DNA of 64,000 nt from Octopus vulgaris (Eukaryota). Every line of letters starts with the position of its first letter. Positions within the stretch are counted from its first letter, which is position 1. The notes under the pieces were generated by a model. That model did not search any database. It was given only the letters and a program-made list of their open reading frames with translations, and was not told the origin of the DNA. This document shows, in pieces, positions 2,101-61,893 of this stretch. The stretch covers positions 156,302,001 to 156,366,000 of the forward strand of contig OX597816.1 in the NCBI GenBank assembly GCA_951406725.2, written 5' to 3'. The translations under genes were made by a program, and so were the position numbers.

Positions 2101-2293
2101 CATTTTTTTTTCTCTCCTTGTTTCTCTCCTTGTTTCTCTCCTTGTTTCTTTTCTGTGTATCTTTCTGTTGAAGAGCGTAGGCTCGAAACGTAAAAGACTT
2201 GTTTTATTTCTATTCCTGGGCGCCATACTAATAGAATTACTTGTTTGTACTCCACCTGCCTTCGTCTTTTGTTTATTTTCGTAAACCTTCCCG
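2101..2293 (+). mobile_element. Penelope-like element terminal repeat (pLTR-like) fragment with hammerhead motif
   Basis: Pyrimidine-rich segment (12-bp tttctctccttg x3), then an HHR motif at 2160-2197, then a T-rich 3' part ending cgtaaaccttcccgt directly against a long (TA)n. Homologous to 13996-14170 (-). PLE assignment is inferred from the minimal HHR architecture. Confidence 0.65.
2160..2197 (+). ncRNA. Minimal type I hammerhead ribozyme motif, A6U core variant
   Basis: tcttt-CTGTTGA-A-GAGC-gtag-GCTC-GAAA-C-GTA-aaaga: 5-bp stem I, 4-bp stem II, short palindromic stem III (ACGT), GUA cleavage triplet. Confidence 0.7.
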
Positions 2294-15824: not shown

Positions 15825-15922
15825 CAAGACACCTGAAGAAGCCGAAACGTTGTGTTAACAACAAACAAGATGAGGACAAATATCCGTCGAATGTAAATAA
15901 TGTAAATAATGTACATAATTCC
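15822..15922 (+). mobile_element. Penelope-like 3' terminal fragment with collapsed hammerhead (15828-15856)
   Basis: gacac-CTGAAGA-A-gcc-GAAA-C-GTT-gtgtt: 5-bp stem I and intact core words, stem II lost; followed by aatgtaaat tandem copies. Confidence 0.6.
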
Positions 15923-23447: not shown

Positions 23448-23807
23448 CATTATTATTATTATTTTGCGAAGAATGCATCTTGTGCGGTATCATTATACCT
23501 TTCAACGTCTTTGTTGTACCAATTCAAATCACACAATGTATTTCTCAGTATGTAAATTTTTTGCTATATTTGCATGTATATTTTAGATAGGTTTGCAGAT
23601 TCCTACTATAGCCATATCTGATATATAATAACGCCACCCAAAGTAATCTTTTCAGTAATATTTCGGACCACCACAGCTCACTCACGGAAAACAAGTGTTC
23701 GTGTCAGAAAATTCATCCACCTTCGGAAGAATTTGTCTAGATGACTCTAAATAATAATTTTTCCTCTTCTTAATACTTTCGGTAATAAGTCGAGTTAAAC
23801 AATTGTA

Positions 23808-26084
23808 CACTCTGCTTAATGCAGACTTGAAAATTTTGGCCAAGGTGCTAGCCAAGAGGTTGGCGCTTGTCATCGAGAAACTGGTCGACAAGGCGCAAAC
23901 ATGCGCCGTGCCGGGCCGGACCATCCATGACAACCTCAACCTGATGCGCTACATCATAGACTGGGTAGTTAACGAACCTGGCATGGGTGGGGCGCTGATC
24001 AATTTGGATCAATCGAAAGCTTTCGATAAGGTGGACCATCGATACTTGGAGGCAGTCCTCAGAGCGGCTGGATAGCCGCTTTGTACAGAGGCATCCGTTC
24101 GGTAATTCGCGTAAATGGACATCTATCGAGACCTTTCGACATCGCACGTTCGGTCCGTTAGGGATGCCCCCTCTCGTCGCTTCTATACGTATTGACTCTC
24201 GAGCCATTATTGCGGAAGCTGGCAACTTTGATGGGCATCTCGCAAGAACTAGGATGCGGGACGAGCGTGTCTGCATACGCGGACGACGTCACCGTCATAG
24301 TGTCTAGCCACGAGCACATCGAGCAAGTCGGCGAGACACTGAAAATCTACGAAGCGGTGACAGGAGCGAAAATCAACCGGGAAAAGTCAGTGGGCTTGCG
24401 ACTAGGCACCTGGAGAAGCAAGCCCATGCCGTCAACCAGCGCCTCCGTCGTGAGGCGCTGGACCGACGGCCCGGTCTGGTTCGGTCCAGACCACCAAGTG
24501 GAGAAGAACTGGAACGAGATAACGAGTAGAGTGGTCACTCTCGGCCGGCAATGGGCCGAGAGGAAACTGTCCCTAAAAGGTCGGGCGGAGGTGACCAACA
24601 CGTACATCGCGTCCGTCATCTACTACCGCCTTGTGCCTTGTCCCGACCCTACCATCACCAAATTAGAACGCATTCTCTTTCGCTTCTTGTGGAAAGGATG
24701 CGTCCCGATGGTCAGGCGATCCATTTGCTGTCAACACCCGTTAAAAGGAGGACTGGGCATGCCGTGGTTGATGATGCGCAGACACGCGCTGAGACTGCGA
24801 CATCTCAGGCTCTTCGTAGACGACGGTGAACAGGTGTGGTCGCCGTTTGTGAGGCACGCTTTCCGCAGCTCGTCTCCATGACCGAACTGCAGTCGTGGAT
24901 CAAAAAGAGGCCGAGGAAGGGCGAATGGCACCGCGAGTGTCGCGTTGCTCTCAAGCAACTCTGCCGTCCTGGGTCGACCTTGAGTGACTTCCATCACAAC
25001 CAAAGCATTCTATAGGGGATTAGTGGAGGGGAGGTACGACGACGAACTCGGGGCGAACCTGGACGTCAATGAGGAGTACCTGATCCGCCTGTTCGGGACG
25101 ACTTTCGGACCAGGGCCCATGGACAACTTCCAGGGATCCCTGGTCTGGCAGTGCTACCGAGAAGCGCTACCCGTTCGGGATAAGCTCTACAGACACGGCT
25201 CGAGAAACACGGGGCCGACCTGCCCGAGATTCGGTCAGAGCGACGAAACCGTTCTGCACGCACTCGTGCAGTGTCCAACAATTTCCGACCTGTGGGCTTA
25301 TGTCGAACAACTGCTGTCACGTGTGGGACGAGTCGGTTTATCAGCTGAGTCTATCGTCAATATTGTCACGCCTCCTTCCTTCAAACGGGAAGGAAGAGCT
25401 ATTTTCATCATCCTTGTGGCTATGGCGAAGGAATGTATCTGGTGGACGCGTCTGAAAGGATTGGAGACAAACACTTTCCTCTCTGGTCAATCTCTCATCA
25501 ACTTCTTCAAGTACCACTTGAAAAGGAAAGTGAGAGTAGAGAGGCAAGTTTTGTCTAGCGAATGTTTTAAAAAAAGATGGGTGAATGTAGCAAGGATGGC
25601 ACGTATGAATGACGAAGCCACCTTGAGCATAATCCTATGAACCCAGAAATTGAAAACAGAGGGTTACCCACTTGCAAACAAATGTGGTAACATATAACAA
25701 TATTGACCAAGGTTACCGTGGTCTTTTTCGTAGGCTTTTCTTCCCACGGATAAACCTTACTTGCTTTCCCCTTTACACCATACATCATAACACTGTGATA
25801 CACGATCCCTATTGATCGTTTTTCTTTCCTCTTCCCCCTTTTCCCCCCTTTTTTCGTCTCTTTTCATTTCTCTTTTCTTTTGTTCCTTTTCCTTTTTTTT
25901 TTTTTTTTTCTTTTTTTTTTTGTTCTTTTTTCCCTTTTACGATCCCTTTTGATCGAAAACCTACGCCACCTTTTTTTTGTTTCTTTTGTTTTTTTGTTTT
26001 TTGTTTTTTTCATCCCCCAAAAGAAAAGCTCTACCTTGTAACTTGTCCCATCTGTGTGCAGCCCTGTGTGGCCAATAGAGAAAC

Positions 26085-26298: not shown

Positions 26299-26619
26299 GT
26301 GTGCAGCCCTGTGTGGCTAATAAAGAAACATATCTATCAATCTATATATCTATCAATGTAATTCTTTTGACTGGTGGACGCACCTGAAAGGATTGGATCT
26401 ATATCACGAATTCCGTATTGCTACTTCAGATAATAATTGATGAAGGAAACGGAAGATACATTTATCCTAGTCTTTATTCAGTACGACAATCGGTTTGACC
26501 CATCCTGCAACTCTCCGTTATGGGTAGGGTTATCTCCATCTAATTCTGTTGCATCAGTCTGTGAGGTTTGTGCCACAATAAGTACATGCATAAATAAGAT
26601 GTACCGCTAAATACACTGA

Positions 26620-26881
<262 letters not shown>

Positions 26882-29489: not shown

Positions 29490-30432
29490 CAGGAGTGGCT
29501 GTGTGGTAAGTAGTTTGCTTACCAACCACTTGGTTCCGGGTTCAGTCCCACTGTATGTCACCTTGGGCAAGTGTCTTCTACTATAGCCTCGGGCCGACCA
29601 AAACCTTGTGAGTGGATTTGATTGACAAAACTGAAAGACGCCTGCCGTATTCCCTTCCGCCATTGCTTCTTTGCCAAGTTGTTTTGGCGCCTTTTTCTCC
29701 CAGCCTCTTTGATTCTTTCTCTCTCTCTCTCTCTCTCTTGGTCACTGCTCCTGTCCTCAGCCTTCCACCCTCCTTGGTCCCCTCTCTCTCTGTCCCTCTT
29801 TCTCTCACTCTTACCCACTTGCGACTTGCTGCCTCAGCCATTCCGTTGCCAACGGCCGCTTGTTCAACATGTGTCTCTTCGCCGAAAAGGTAATTATTTT
29901 TCCACGCTTGCTGATAAATTGTTTTTGTGTCTCCTTTTGTCTCAAAGCCGTAGGGCGCCTGTGTCATCCTTGTTTTTAACCGTTACTGTCTTCAAAAAAG
30001 TTTTTTTCGTTTCATGTTCGTCTCTGTTGCGTTGCATTCTTTCCTTCTGGGGCTGGCCGATTCAGAGCAGATCTCAGAATTAAACAGCCGAAATTTGCGA
30101 TGATGAATCGGTTTCTGACTGAAGAACGAAGACTTTGAATGACCCGTCTGTCTCTTATGTTCGTCCCTTCGTGTATTTCACGTTATTTATATATGTAAAG
30201 GTTTATTTTATTATTATATATATATATGTGTGTGTGTGTATGTGTCCGTGTTTATGCCCTCGCCCCCCGCCACATCGCTTGACAACAGATGCTGGTGTGT
30301 TTAAGTAACTTAGCGGCCCGGCAAAAGAGACCGATAGAATAAGACTAACTCCTGGGGTCGATTTGCTCGACTAAAGGCGGTGCTCCAGCATGGCCGCAGT
30401 CAAATGACTGAAACAAGTAAAAGAGTAAAAGA
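29490..30432 (+). mobile_element. SINE family A split by a nested insertion (head 29490-29650, tail about 30225-30432)
   Basis: Head ggagtggctgtgtggtaag...ccttgggcaagtgtcttct and tail catcgcttgacaac...cagcatggccgcagtcaaatgactgaaacaagtaaaagag are collinear with the intact copy at 34413-34860. Confidence 0.85.
29651..30190 (+). mobile_element. About 540-bp inserted repeat (PLE-like?) with structured RNA motif at 30051-30125
   Basis: Interrupts the SINE at its central microsatellite; pyrimidine-rich 5' part, T-rich 3' end abutting tatatat; shares motif architecture with 49120-49345. Confidence 0.5.
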
Positions 30433-37756: not shown

Positions 37757-37956
37757 GAAAACACAAAGAGAAAACGCAACAACACGAGGACGTGGAACAA
37801 GTATAGTATTATTGAACGCTCAGGAAAGAAGGAAACAAGGAGGATTTAACGTTTCGAGCGGAGCTCTTCGTCAGAAACATGGGAAAATGAAAGATCCAAA
37901 GAAGGGAAGATGGAGGAAAAAAATCGCCAACGGTACCAACGGTACACACGCGGTCA
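37757..37956 (-). mobile_element. Penelope-like pLTR fragment carrying a hammerhead
   Basis: Minus strand pyrimidine-rich lead, HHR motif, then ttcctgagcgttcaataatact...gttgttgcgttttctctttgtg, related to the post-HHR segments at 2200 and 14060; (TA)n nearby on both sides. Confidence 0.65.
37844..37878 (-). ncRNA. Minimal type I hammerhead ribozyme motif, canonical core
   Basis: gttt-CTGACGA-A-GAGC-tcc-GCTC-GAAA-C-GTT-aaat; palindromic AACGTT at stem III. Confidence 0.75.
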
Positions 37957-48916: not shown

Positions 48917-48947
<31 letters not shown>

Positions 48948-49119
48948 CACATATATAAATATAAATGTATATATAAATAGATAAATAGATATATATAGAT
49001 ATATATATGCATACATATATATACATACCTATATATAATATAAATAATATAGAAATATATGCATATATACATACATATTACTTTTTTACTGTTTTTAATT
49101 TTTTATTATATTTACTGTA

Positions 49120-49345
49120 TTGTTTTCACTGTCCTGTTCTGTTACCACTTTCAACCTCCGCAAAAAATCCCAAATGTTATTTAATTTGCTTTGCGGGAAG
49201 GACTGTTTCAACGAAGTTGCGTCTTGTTCTTGCTTTCGAAACATGGAGTAGTTGAAACAGGGACAACTGAAGAAGAGGAATATTCTTTGTGTTGTATGTC
49301 TCTTTTCTCTGCTTTTTTTTTCGCTGTTGTCTTCAAAACAAAACT
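49120..49345 (+). mobile_element. Repeat fragment (PLE-like?) with structured RNA motif at 49196-49303
   Basis: Perfect 10-bp pairing ctgtttcaac/gttgaaacag, CGAAAC..GTA and CTGAAGAAG words, T-rich 3' end. Confidence 0.45.
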
Positions 49346-50810
49346 GGATCTCCTCCTGTCAAAGATTCCAGATGACCCAACCTCATGCCAGGAAACATAG
49401 ATGAGGGCAACAGCGTCAGATTCCCTCATTCACCAAATGCCATATATGAGAGGAAGTTTTAAAAGATGGCGTGGCACAGCCAACAGTGGTGCCCCAGCAT
49501 GACCGCAGCTTTAAAAGTGAGACAACGGAAAGAAAAATGAAAGAAAATATGTGTGCATGTGTATACATACATACATATTGCAGACATAGATAGATGCATA
49601 CAAATATATATCGTTGGTGGGTGTCAAATATTTACGAGACAATGTAACGTCGCAGATAAAATGGAACAAAGTGAGATAATTAGTTTTGCAGTCAATGATA
49701 AATGAAGAAATTGCAAGTAATTTGACATTTTGAGGTTAAACTCCTTTTCAGAAATGTTTTTAGTTGGAGGAAGAAACAATTAAGAGAGAAGGAAAAACGA
49801 CGTAACAACAGTAACGAAAAATTAGGTATCGCTCTGTGTCAAGCGATGAACGTTTGTATCACATTATGTGTATAGGAACATGCGTGTGAGTGGAGCAAAT
49901 AACTGAAACAAAATATTAAAACTAAAGCAAGATAAATAGTAAGTAGTCTCTTGTGGCTAGTATTTATTTAGACTAATACTTTTAACAAACATTAAAACAT
50001 TTTCCTGTTATATAAGAACTGTTAATCAAATATTACAAACAAGAGAATTGCAGATCAAAGGAACTAACAACTTTCAAAGAATAAAACTTAAAAGAAAATT
50101 AAATAGAATGAAAATATGAGTTGCAGTCTGCTTAGATGATATAGAGGTTAATGGCGTTGTATCGTCTTATATGTAGTTTTTTAGGAACTCGCACAGAAAA
50201 GATAGTTTTGTGGTTCATCGTCATTTTGTTCATAACAAATGAGAGTCTTAAGTATATGTCAAAAATTTTACCGTGTAGTATTATCTATAATTGTACTTGC
50301 AGAGGTACCCACATTAAATACGACATTCAAATTAGAATAAAAGCAGGCCTTTCTTTCTAATCAAATACTTAGCGAACAAGACGTAATAAGACATGTTTTA
50401 GAGCCATATAACCTTATCTTTGGTTGCTTTTACCGAATTTAACTAATATCATTAATGGTATCATTATCAATAGATTTATAAAAAAAAAAATTAGCTATTA
50501 GATCTAAGGTACTTTGAGTAACCCCTAACTGCTTTTAGCGTATTAGCAACGTGATACATCTTGACATTAATTTCTGGAGGATTAGCAACGAAGTTTAAGT
50601 GATAGCACAATGCAAGAATAAAATGCAAGCTCAAAAATTGAAGCAAAAGCGAAATATGGGTAGAAGTGATACGCTGCCTGAAAATGGACTCAGACTTATT
50701 TGTTACGGAATACATATATATGTTCATATGCATACACATATATATTAGTATTATTACATAGATGTATACACACACACACAGACACGTACACACATGTATA
50801 TACGTAAGTA

Positions 50811-61119: not shown

Positions 61120-61893
61120 GTAGAGCTCGATGAGGATGTCCTGCAAACCCTGGTGGAATAAAATCCCATTGTATATTCTGAAGAACTAGCAGAGAAGCTT
61201 GGATTTGTTCATTCAACAATTCATCGACACCTGCGTGCCATTGGAAAAGTCAGCAAATTGAGTCAATGGGTTCCTCACAAACTTTACGAGTCCAGCCGTG
61301 CACAGAGAGTGAATGTGTGCTTTTCCTTGTTGTCACGTCATTTGGTAGGGCGGGGGACCGAATAATACTGGTGACGAAAAATGGTTTCTATATAAAATAG
61401 TTTCTCTATGAAAATGTCAAACACCGAAGACAGCGGGTAGGAAAAGTAGACACACCGGCACACCAAGCTAAAGAAGGTTTTCATCCACATAAGGTGTTTG
61501 GTGGGATACGAAAAGTTTAGTCCACTTTGAACTTTTAAATCCAAACTAAACGATAACAAAGGAGATCTACTGCGTGCAGCTTGAGCGATTAGAAGTCAGC
61601 GTTAGAAGAAAAATGAGAAAAATCTTCTTGTTAAGTGTTCTTCCATTAGGGTAAAGTGAGGATGATATTTCAAAGGCTGGAGAATTTTGAATGGGAAACG
61701 ATGCCCCTCCCAACATATAGGCCAGAAACTGCTCCATCTAATTATCATTTATTTCGCAGTCTTCAAAATCATTTGGACGGAAAAATATGAATTCTGTAAA
61801 TGAGGTCAAAAGAGTACTGGAAAAGTATTTTTCGTCAATTTTTGGAAGAGGGCCCTTGAAAATGTACTGGATAGATGGAAGAGCTTTGTAGAA
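61120..61893 (+). pseudogene. Mariner transposase pseudogene
   Basis: VELDEDVLQTLVE*NP..EELAEKLGFVHSTIHRHLRAIGKVSKLSQWVPHKL, TGDEKWFLY, FHPHKV, WWDTKSLVHFELL, FEWETMPLPTYRPETAPSNYHLFRSLQNHL, LDRWKSFVE; stops and frameshifts, third catalytic D reads N. Confidence 0.93.

Follow-up and report, generated by a model that had tools for sequence, protein, structure and literature searches.

A Predicted Split Hammerhead Ribozyme on a High-Copy Animal Repeat, with Putative Counterparts in Naiad Penelope-like Elements

Introduction

What kind of RNA is encoded by a short dispersed repeat that carries the core letters of a hammerhead ribozyme in an order other than that of the ordinary type I form? The locus lies in a window (the whole stretch of DNA analysed here, 64,000 nucleotides long) of AT-rich, microsatellite-laden eukaryotic DNA without long genes. 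A sequence-only reading had proposed a hammerhead-related, pseudoknotted and covarying RNA motif common to two places, positions 30051-30125 (copy 1) and 49196-49303 (copy 2). It was right on that point, and the particular fold and cut site that it assigned to copy 2 are revised here.

Two published lines of work frame the question. In the available portions of their article, Eckert, Friedrich, Weinberg and Weinberg (2023, PMC10085705) allow six permutations of the hammerhead blocks, assume that the CUGAnGA block is uninterruptible, and use descriptors that require the 5′ strand of stem II to follow CUGAnGA; type SGC comes there from metatranscriptomes and type CSG from two metagenome sequences. 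Craig et al. (2021, PMC8557442), in the sections consulted, describe Naiad Penelope-like elements without a canonical hammerhead, marked only with “HHR_core” and “HHR_half_core”, and state that cephalopod Naiads target (TA)n. We consider it probable that the locus holds a predicted non-circularly permuted hammerhead that, by analogy with such ribozymes, would cleave itself just after C49223. Its carrier is an animal repeat of high copy number, likely representing the tail of a Penelope-like element (PLE).

Results

The carrier is a high-copy dispersed repeat on the + strand with approximate limits 49113..49304, preceded on its 5′ side by a (TA)n-rich microsatellite (48917..49078, Tandem Repeats Finder). 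Contig depth climbs from 49113 and drops past 49304 in all four runs used, which come from four organisms and placed 5241, 282, 2896 and 3054 contigs on 49081-49560, with depth mostly at about 49113-49304. Part of the motif region is present in 20 of the 24 sequencing runs listed. Single contigs of related repeats carry the same block order across 49140-49317, which shows that it did not arise by a rearrangement peculiar to this locus. The deepest contig cover falls on 49161-49208, that is, on the P6 hairpin and the stem II 5′ strand described below and not on the catalytic core, depth being distinct from copy number. A second, unrelated high-copy repeat (49328-49525) comes right after the motif, and its contigs run upstream with other sequence. 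An 11-mer shared by positions 49329 and 29988, once considered as the mark of a tandem unit, was dropped, as 49328 onward belongs to that other repeat.

A domain scan of 150 frames, the longest of 317 that were not of low complexity, detected no PLE domain beside the motif. Nor did it detect next to either copy a reverse transcriptase or GIY-YIG frame, Naiads having upstream of the tail an ORF with an N-terminal GIY-YIG and a C-terminal reverse transcriptase; short truncated copies are expected to lack such a frame. BLAST within the window returned no further copy. Rfam gave zero matches at gathering score over the whole window and four weak ones over 49100-49340, none of them a hammerhead; the output of an E-value search of the window was swamped by microsatellite matches. 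Elsewhere, a LINE-type retroelement that matches RVT_1 and zf-RVT, and is broken, occupies 23758-25637 (+), and weak helix-turn-helix matches at 61162-61362 (+) are perhaps a DNA transposon remnant.

The fold that we propose for copy 2 is that of a predicted non-circularly permuted hammerhead with block order S-G-C, whose stem II has its 5′ strand separated from A9. All its parts lie on the + strand, in the order P5a, P6, stem II (5′), B, S, G, B′, stem I (5′), CUGAAGA and P5b. It opens with the P5 5′ strand (49154..49157), which is predicted to pair with the four bases that immediately follow A9 and was placed from pairing and from the majority letters of related repeats. The P6 hairpin follows (49158..49196), with seven Watson–Crick pairs between 49158-64 and 49190-96 and an inner helix of 5 bp, ending directly before G10.1; its mean pair probability in the nested ViennaRNA ensemble is 0.94. 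G10.1 (49197) begins the stem II 5′ strand (49197..49201), which pairs with 49233-37. Next comes the 5′ strand of helix B (49203..49210), equivalent, by comparison with the available portions of PMC10085705, to the helix by which stem I is connected with stem II in types SGC and CSG. Helix B has a pair probability of 0.97 in the same nested ensemble. The left strand of an internal loop between B and stem III (49211..49216) faces 49247-52 and may serve as a hinge.

The S block then sits in the 20-nt loop between B and the stem II 3′ strand. It comprises the stem III strand 49217..49222, which ends in U16.1 (49222) and pairs with 49241-46; the H17 residue at 49223, in a GUC, just 3′ of which the cut is predicted by analogy and which is C or A in related repeats; and the stem I strand 49224..49229, pairing with 49261-66. 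The stem II strand begins three bases past the stem I strand. Block G (49233..49246) combines the stem II 3′ strand (49233-37), GAAA (49238-41) and the other stem III strand (49241-46). After the 3′ strand of helix B (49253..49260, placed by pairing), the segment 49261..49273 brings the second stem I strand (49261-66) and, directly, CUGAAGA (49267-73), and the P5 3′ strand (49274..49277, from pairing and majority letters) starts directly after A9. The core letters are thus all present: CUGAAGA, GAAA, the U-H step at 49222-23 with H17, and the pairs A15.1-U16.1 and G10.1-C11.1, with which stems I, II and III abut the core.

Copy 2 is not a flawless member of its family. Its stem III is weakened by one mismatch along with three G-U pairs, which is not so in copy 1, and P5 has two mismatches, i.e., two of its four pairs are broken. 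In the nested ViennaRNA ensemble, neither P5 nor any of stems I, II and III exceeds a probability of 0.003; such an ensemble cannot score pseudoknots, and the values show strong competing folds. A local hairpin after the core (49274-79/49283-88), first taken as a conserved helix, was replaced by P5. Readings as HDV-like, pistol or twister ribozymes, judged against their consensus structures, were dropped for absence of the needed letters.

Letters of related repeats separate this fold from the one proposed at first. Majority letters were read from four runs (X1, X3, X8 and X17) of four organisms among the variant rows listed (40 of 180), and they are unlinked; they include C at 49154, 49218, 49228 and 49234, G at 49243 and 49276, A at 49252, and C or A at 49223. 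With those of X1, six variable pairs of the S-G-C fold are improved and none worsened, whereas the helices of the sequence-only reading gain at one variable pair and lose at five. Over the 36 pairs of the model, copy 2 has 28 Watson–Crick pairs, 5 G-U pairs and 3 mismatches, versus 34, 2 and 0 with the X1 majority. P5 becomes Watson–Crick at four of four pairs, the two restoring letters standing at 98% and 96% of X1 depth, and stem III becomes intact. The loose-end consensus of run X8 (20 contigs), read by eye, represents a subfamily with changed letters on both stem III strands. Most restorations put C or G for T or A, mostly undoing C-to-T and G-to-A changes, a pattern that decay from a GC-richer ancestor would give as well.

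The same letters shift or shorten the helices first drawn. Every letter group named in the sequence-only reading is where it was said to be (GGAAG at 49196-200, CTTTC at 49233-37, GAAA at 49238-41, GTA at 49248-50 and CTGAAGA at 49267-73). The pairing of the first two groups is real in kind and wrong in register: C at 49234, at 92% of X1 depth, breaks it and makes perfect the register one base to the right, which is why we place stem II at 49197-201. A helix of 49203-12 with 49251-60 also exists, yet the perfect pairing claimed for it is private to copy 2, and what remains is the 8-bp B/B′ (49203-10/49253-60). Related repeats read A at 49252 in 87% (X1), 99% (X17) and 67% (X3) of depth, with X1, X8 and X17 all within 87-99%.

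That position matters for the fold first favoured, a hammerhead of type II (G-S-C) that has its cut after A49250 and is switched by B and the 3′ tail. Several of its elements are in the sequence, namely GUA at 49248-50, the pairs C-G and A-U that follow GAAA, and the helix of the tail. Both candidate short stems I (uug/caa and guu/gac) need T49252, however, which is A in most related repeats, so that the U-H with a closed stem I hairpin that type II has between GAAA and CUGAnGA depends on a private T, and the cut after A49250 on letters private to copy 2. Copy 1 has no U-H at the place matching that cut site. The better U-H site is 49222-23, in the loop that had been left unpaired, and we regard the type II reading as very improbable. 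The tail helix itself exists as claimed: 49297..49303 can pair with 49259-65 (duplex −7.3 kcal/mol, nested probability 0.21), in competition with stem I. Because of this competition, the suggested conformational switch is possible in the motif family, in which the tail could hold stem I open; no such competitor is seen in copy 1.

Copy 1 (30051..30125, +) fits the same predicted fold: stems I, II, III and B are kept with different letters. Stem II is of 5 bp (30051-55/30085-89), helix B of 9 bp (30056-64/30104-112), stem III of 6 bp (30067-72/30093-98) and stem I of 6 bp (30074-79/30113-18). H17 at 30073 lies in an AUC site, similar to GUC, the core is at 30119-25, and a GA/GAUGA internal loop (30065-66/30099-103) separates B from stem III, all on the + strand. 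Upstream of copy 1, P6 is absent. The copy ends in a TA/TG repeat near 30190-30245. The spacing of the two copies had been called identical; the GAAA-to-core distance is indeed 29 nt in both, but the arm from B to stem III takes 2 nt in copy 1 and 6 nt in copy 2, which makes them near and not identical. It is also doubtful that copy 2 is the best preserved, as had been stated, since its four-helix score is 39 against 45 for copy 1, although copy 1 is the one without P6.

Could the two copies be debris left by one or two PLE hammerheads of the ordinary type I, with leftover or chance pairings? Ordinary minimal type I motifs are indeed present at other places of the window, and a small hairpin can form in the stretch that follows CUGAAGA. 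Chance, on the other hand, is excluded by three tests. The descriptor A-B-x-A′-GAAA-x-B′-x-CTGAnGA, written after both sites had been seen, has exactly two matches in the window (30051 and 49196, both +) against three in 663 shuffled windows, which argues that the motif is not a chance assembly. Scored over four helices with the core, the window contains only two matches of at least 24 (45 and 39), while the maximum among 1056 shuffled windows was 34. Shuffling the 20-nt loop from B to A′ yielded a U-H with a 6-bp stem I and a 2-bp stem III in 0.7% of 100,000 cases for each copy. Together with the block order that related repeats keep over 49140-49317 in single contigs, these tests largely refute the debris reading, to which we assign a very small likelihood; the early remark that this is not an ordinary type I hammerhead with a deleted core was borne out.

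The window does hold other hammerhead-like stretches. A minimal type I hammerhead at 15828-15856 (+) has stem II largely deleted, a minimal type I PLE-like one at 37844-37879 (−) has an intact core and an extra A after A9, and a minimal type I hammerhead-like motif at 2160-2198 (+) has one core change. At 26600-26700 (+), a 16-nt match to copy 2 around GAAA comes with a 6-bp stem II-like pairing and without an intact CUGAnGA; it is possibly a decayed relative. A relaxed four-helix scan of the window found no third copy at a score of at least 24, and 26627-26695 was not counted because it falls below that score. Beyond the window, none of 255 loci from loose-pattern scans of viral contigs and a metagenome passed the strict descriptor, a result that is silent on presence there.

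How far, then, does the motif differ from an ordinary type-SGC ribozyme? Two features of that type are present: the S-G linker, 0-8 nt in type SGC, is 3 nt in copy 2 and 5 nt in copy 1, and stems I and II are connected at their far ends by a helix, B, which is 8-9 bp long and separated by 0 nt from stem I and by 0-1 nt from stem II. The uninterrupted block C is absent. Instead of lying 0-2 nt after A9, the best partner of the stem II 3′ strand is 76 nt upstream of A9. One could suppose that stem II is nevertheless formed by the G-rich bases right after CUGAAGA, 49197-201 being an inhibitor that holds stem II off. Four such pairs (49234-37/49275-78) are possible both in copy 2 and with the X1 majority letters, and in the available text of PMC10085705, one additional base after A9 is frequent among SGC ribozymes. 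Of the four pairs, though, two are G-U, and A at 49278 (the X17 majority) breaks one; no such pair can form after the core of copy 1, and at most two can in the eight Naiad lineages presented below, while the upstream partner offers 4-6 bp in all of them, within the records consulted. We therefore hold this explanation to be improbable and retain the split S-G-C fold.

Comparison with Naiads was made on 54 consensus records from the supplement of PMC8557442, parsed by eye around core words, not computed. The places covered were 56 of 62 for CTGATGA, 60 of 81 for CGAAAC, 29 of 43 for CTGAAGA, 15 of 23 for CTGACGA, and, for CTGAGGA, 15 of 25; core words split between two lines escaped this reading. 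Within these passages, the split form with P5 and P6 was recognized by eye in 11 of the 54 records, representing about eight lineages and five phyla: Naiad_Bfor, one Clytia record, Naiad_Amil, Naiad_Aacu, Naiad_Anas, Naiad-2_Movir, Naiad_Plae, Naiad_Obim, Naiad_Ovul, Naiad_Esco and one that is likely Naiad_EuTe by file order. As far as the passages extend, P5 begins 0-2 nt after A9 and P6 stops 0-1 nt before G10.1 in all of them; the upstream strand gives stem II 4-6 bp, the bases that follow the core no more than 2 bp, and the stem letters differ. Some records are imperfect in these passages: stem I is only 2 bp in Naiad_Bfor, Naiad_Aacu has two mismatches, and Naiad_Esco has mismatches in II, P5 and P6.

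An intact type CSG with the same short linkers was found by eye in a further 8 of the 54, nematode by header or file order. The other records of the covered passages comprise one that looks like SGC with a weak stem II, one partial and four unparsed, and the bivalve, hemichordate and fish records show no such motif in the passages around core words. If the CSG ring is imagined as circularly permuted and opened at A9/G10.1, the split form results, and pseudo-LTR copies in tandem could give rise to it. The tail of Naiad-1_Movir looks like a twister ribozyme, by its likeness to the twister consensus, in place of a hammerhead.

Both window copies abut (TA)n-type repeats, the target reported for cephalopod Naiads in the accessible part of PMC8557442, and the split fold, by eye, occurs in 11 of the 54 tails; the (TA)n adjacency is weak evidence, since such repeats fill the window. 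In contrast, the copies and the tails of the Octopus Naiads in that supplement have no obvious sequence in common, and no linked coding region was found among the frames scanned. Their link to Naiads, as far as the letters can tell, appears to be one of shared architecture only.

Discussion

Our model suggests how a hammerhead with a severed catalytic strand might still work. The covalent link between A9 and G10.1 would be replaced by P5 stacked on P6, the crossover point bringing A9 out next to G10.1. At their far ends, stems I and II would meet B in a second three-way junction, as in types SGC and CSG, and the hammerhead core would fold within a cage closed by B. Since CUGAAGA and P5b are the last parts to be transcribed, assembly of the active site would have to wait until the polymerase has passed through the tail. 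With its long stem III, the ribozyme could act as a monomer, trimming the element RNA from read-through or tandem transcripts, and the cut after 49223 would leave a cyclic phosphate and a 5′-OH.

The stem III arm is expected to bend at the internal loop between B and stem III. In copy 1 and two Octopus Naiad tails, a 3-nt bulge followed by tandem G-A/A-G at the stem III/B boundary makes what we take to be a kink-turn-like element; the 6x6 loop of copy 2 seems to us to resemble the bulged-G (loop E) motif more than a kink-turn. In contrast to these, the other Naiads use plain bulges at that boundary in the passages covered.

In the sections of Cervera and de la Pena (2014, PMC4209133) consulted, a single extra base between A9 and G10.1 is conserved in PLE hammerheads, so the backbone at this point tolerates change. 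Copy 2 itself shows partial decay, and its cutting may be weak or absent; that it is active is rather doubtful, while for intact family members we rate the chance of activity as good.

An objection is that the fold may be real and conserved without cutting itself, serving as a binding or priming platform for the protein of the element, or cutting only with the aid of a protein. In the available portions of PMC11167929, the Anolis PLE hammerhead cleaved only with its protein, no RNA ends were found at the site in public data, and insertion in vitro did not depend on cleavage. According to the parts of PMC4209133 consulted, metazoan PLE hammerheads are poor cutters in vitro, and a break at A9/G10.1 falls beyond what Eckert et al. 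found in known alignments, within the accessible text of PMC10085705. Against such a platform stand the catalytic letters and the U-H, kept in both copies and in all split Naiad records read, and a stem III that is long, unlike that of the weak minimal forms. We judge a non-cutting platform unlikely, though less so than the other alternatives, and keep self-cleavage as the preferred reading.

On balance, we lean towards a broader view: that the split form is a seventh natural hammerhead arrangement, caged and with two junctions, whose severed catalytic strand is re-clamped by two stacked helices; that, together with intact CSG, it is the missing ribozyme of many Naiads, from ctenophores to cephalopods; and that non-circular forms are common in animal genomes instead of being metatranscriptome rarities. 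If so, the 2023 assumption of an uninterruptible CUGAnGA block would be broken, and the stated puzzle of Naiads without hammerheads would have its answer. The split fold is invisible to the published descriptors and to Rfam. These would also apparently be the first non-circular hammerheads in animal genomes within the literature searched, mostly without subscription journals, in which we found no non-circular hammerheads in Naiads or animal genomes and no helix insertion at A9/G10.1. In their accessible portions, a 2026 retrozyme preprint treats type I only, Perreault 2011 has core insertions of only 1-2 bases, and PMC13725137 mentions hammerhead variants with additional helices. The dependence of activity on the clamp helix and the bend would make the fold a ready design for switchable RNA devices.

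The motif shares with the minimal type I hammerheads of PLE pseudo-LTRs (PMC4209133, in the sections consulted) a place in the tail of a retroelement and a point, A9/G10.1, at which a one-base insertion is tolerated. Those ribozymes, however, are of type I, with a tiny palindromic stem III and action as dimers, whereas the motif does not have their order C, G, S and short palindromic stem III, showing a scrambled order and a stem III of 5-6 bp. Closer are the type-SGC and type-CSG ribozymes of PMC10085705, which, in the available portions of that article, have in common with it the short S-G linker (3 and 5 nt here) and the helix that links stem I to stem II. The motif differs from them in that its block C is interrupted, with the stem II 5′ strand at the 5′ end and P5 and P6 between A9 and G10.1, in that both strands are continuous between stem III and the joining helix, and in its residence in animal genomic DNA.
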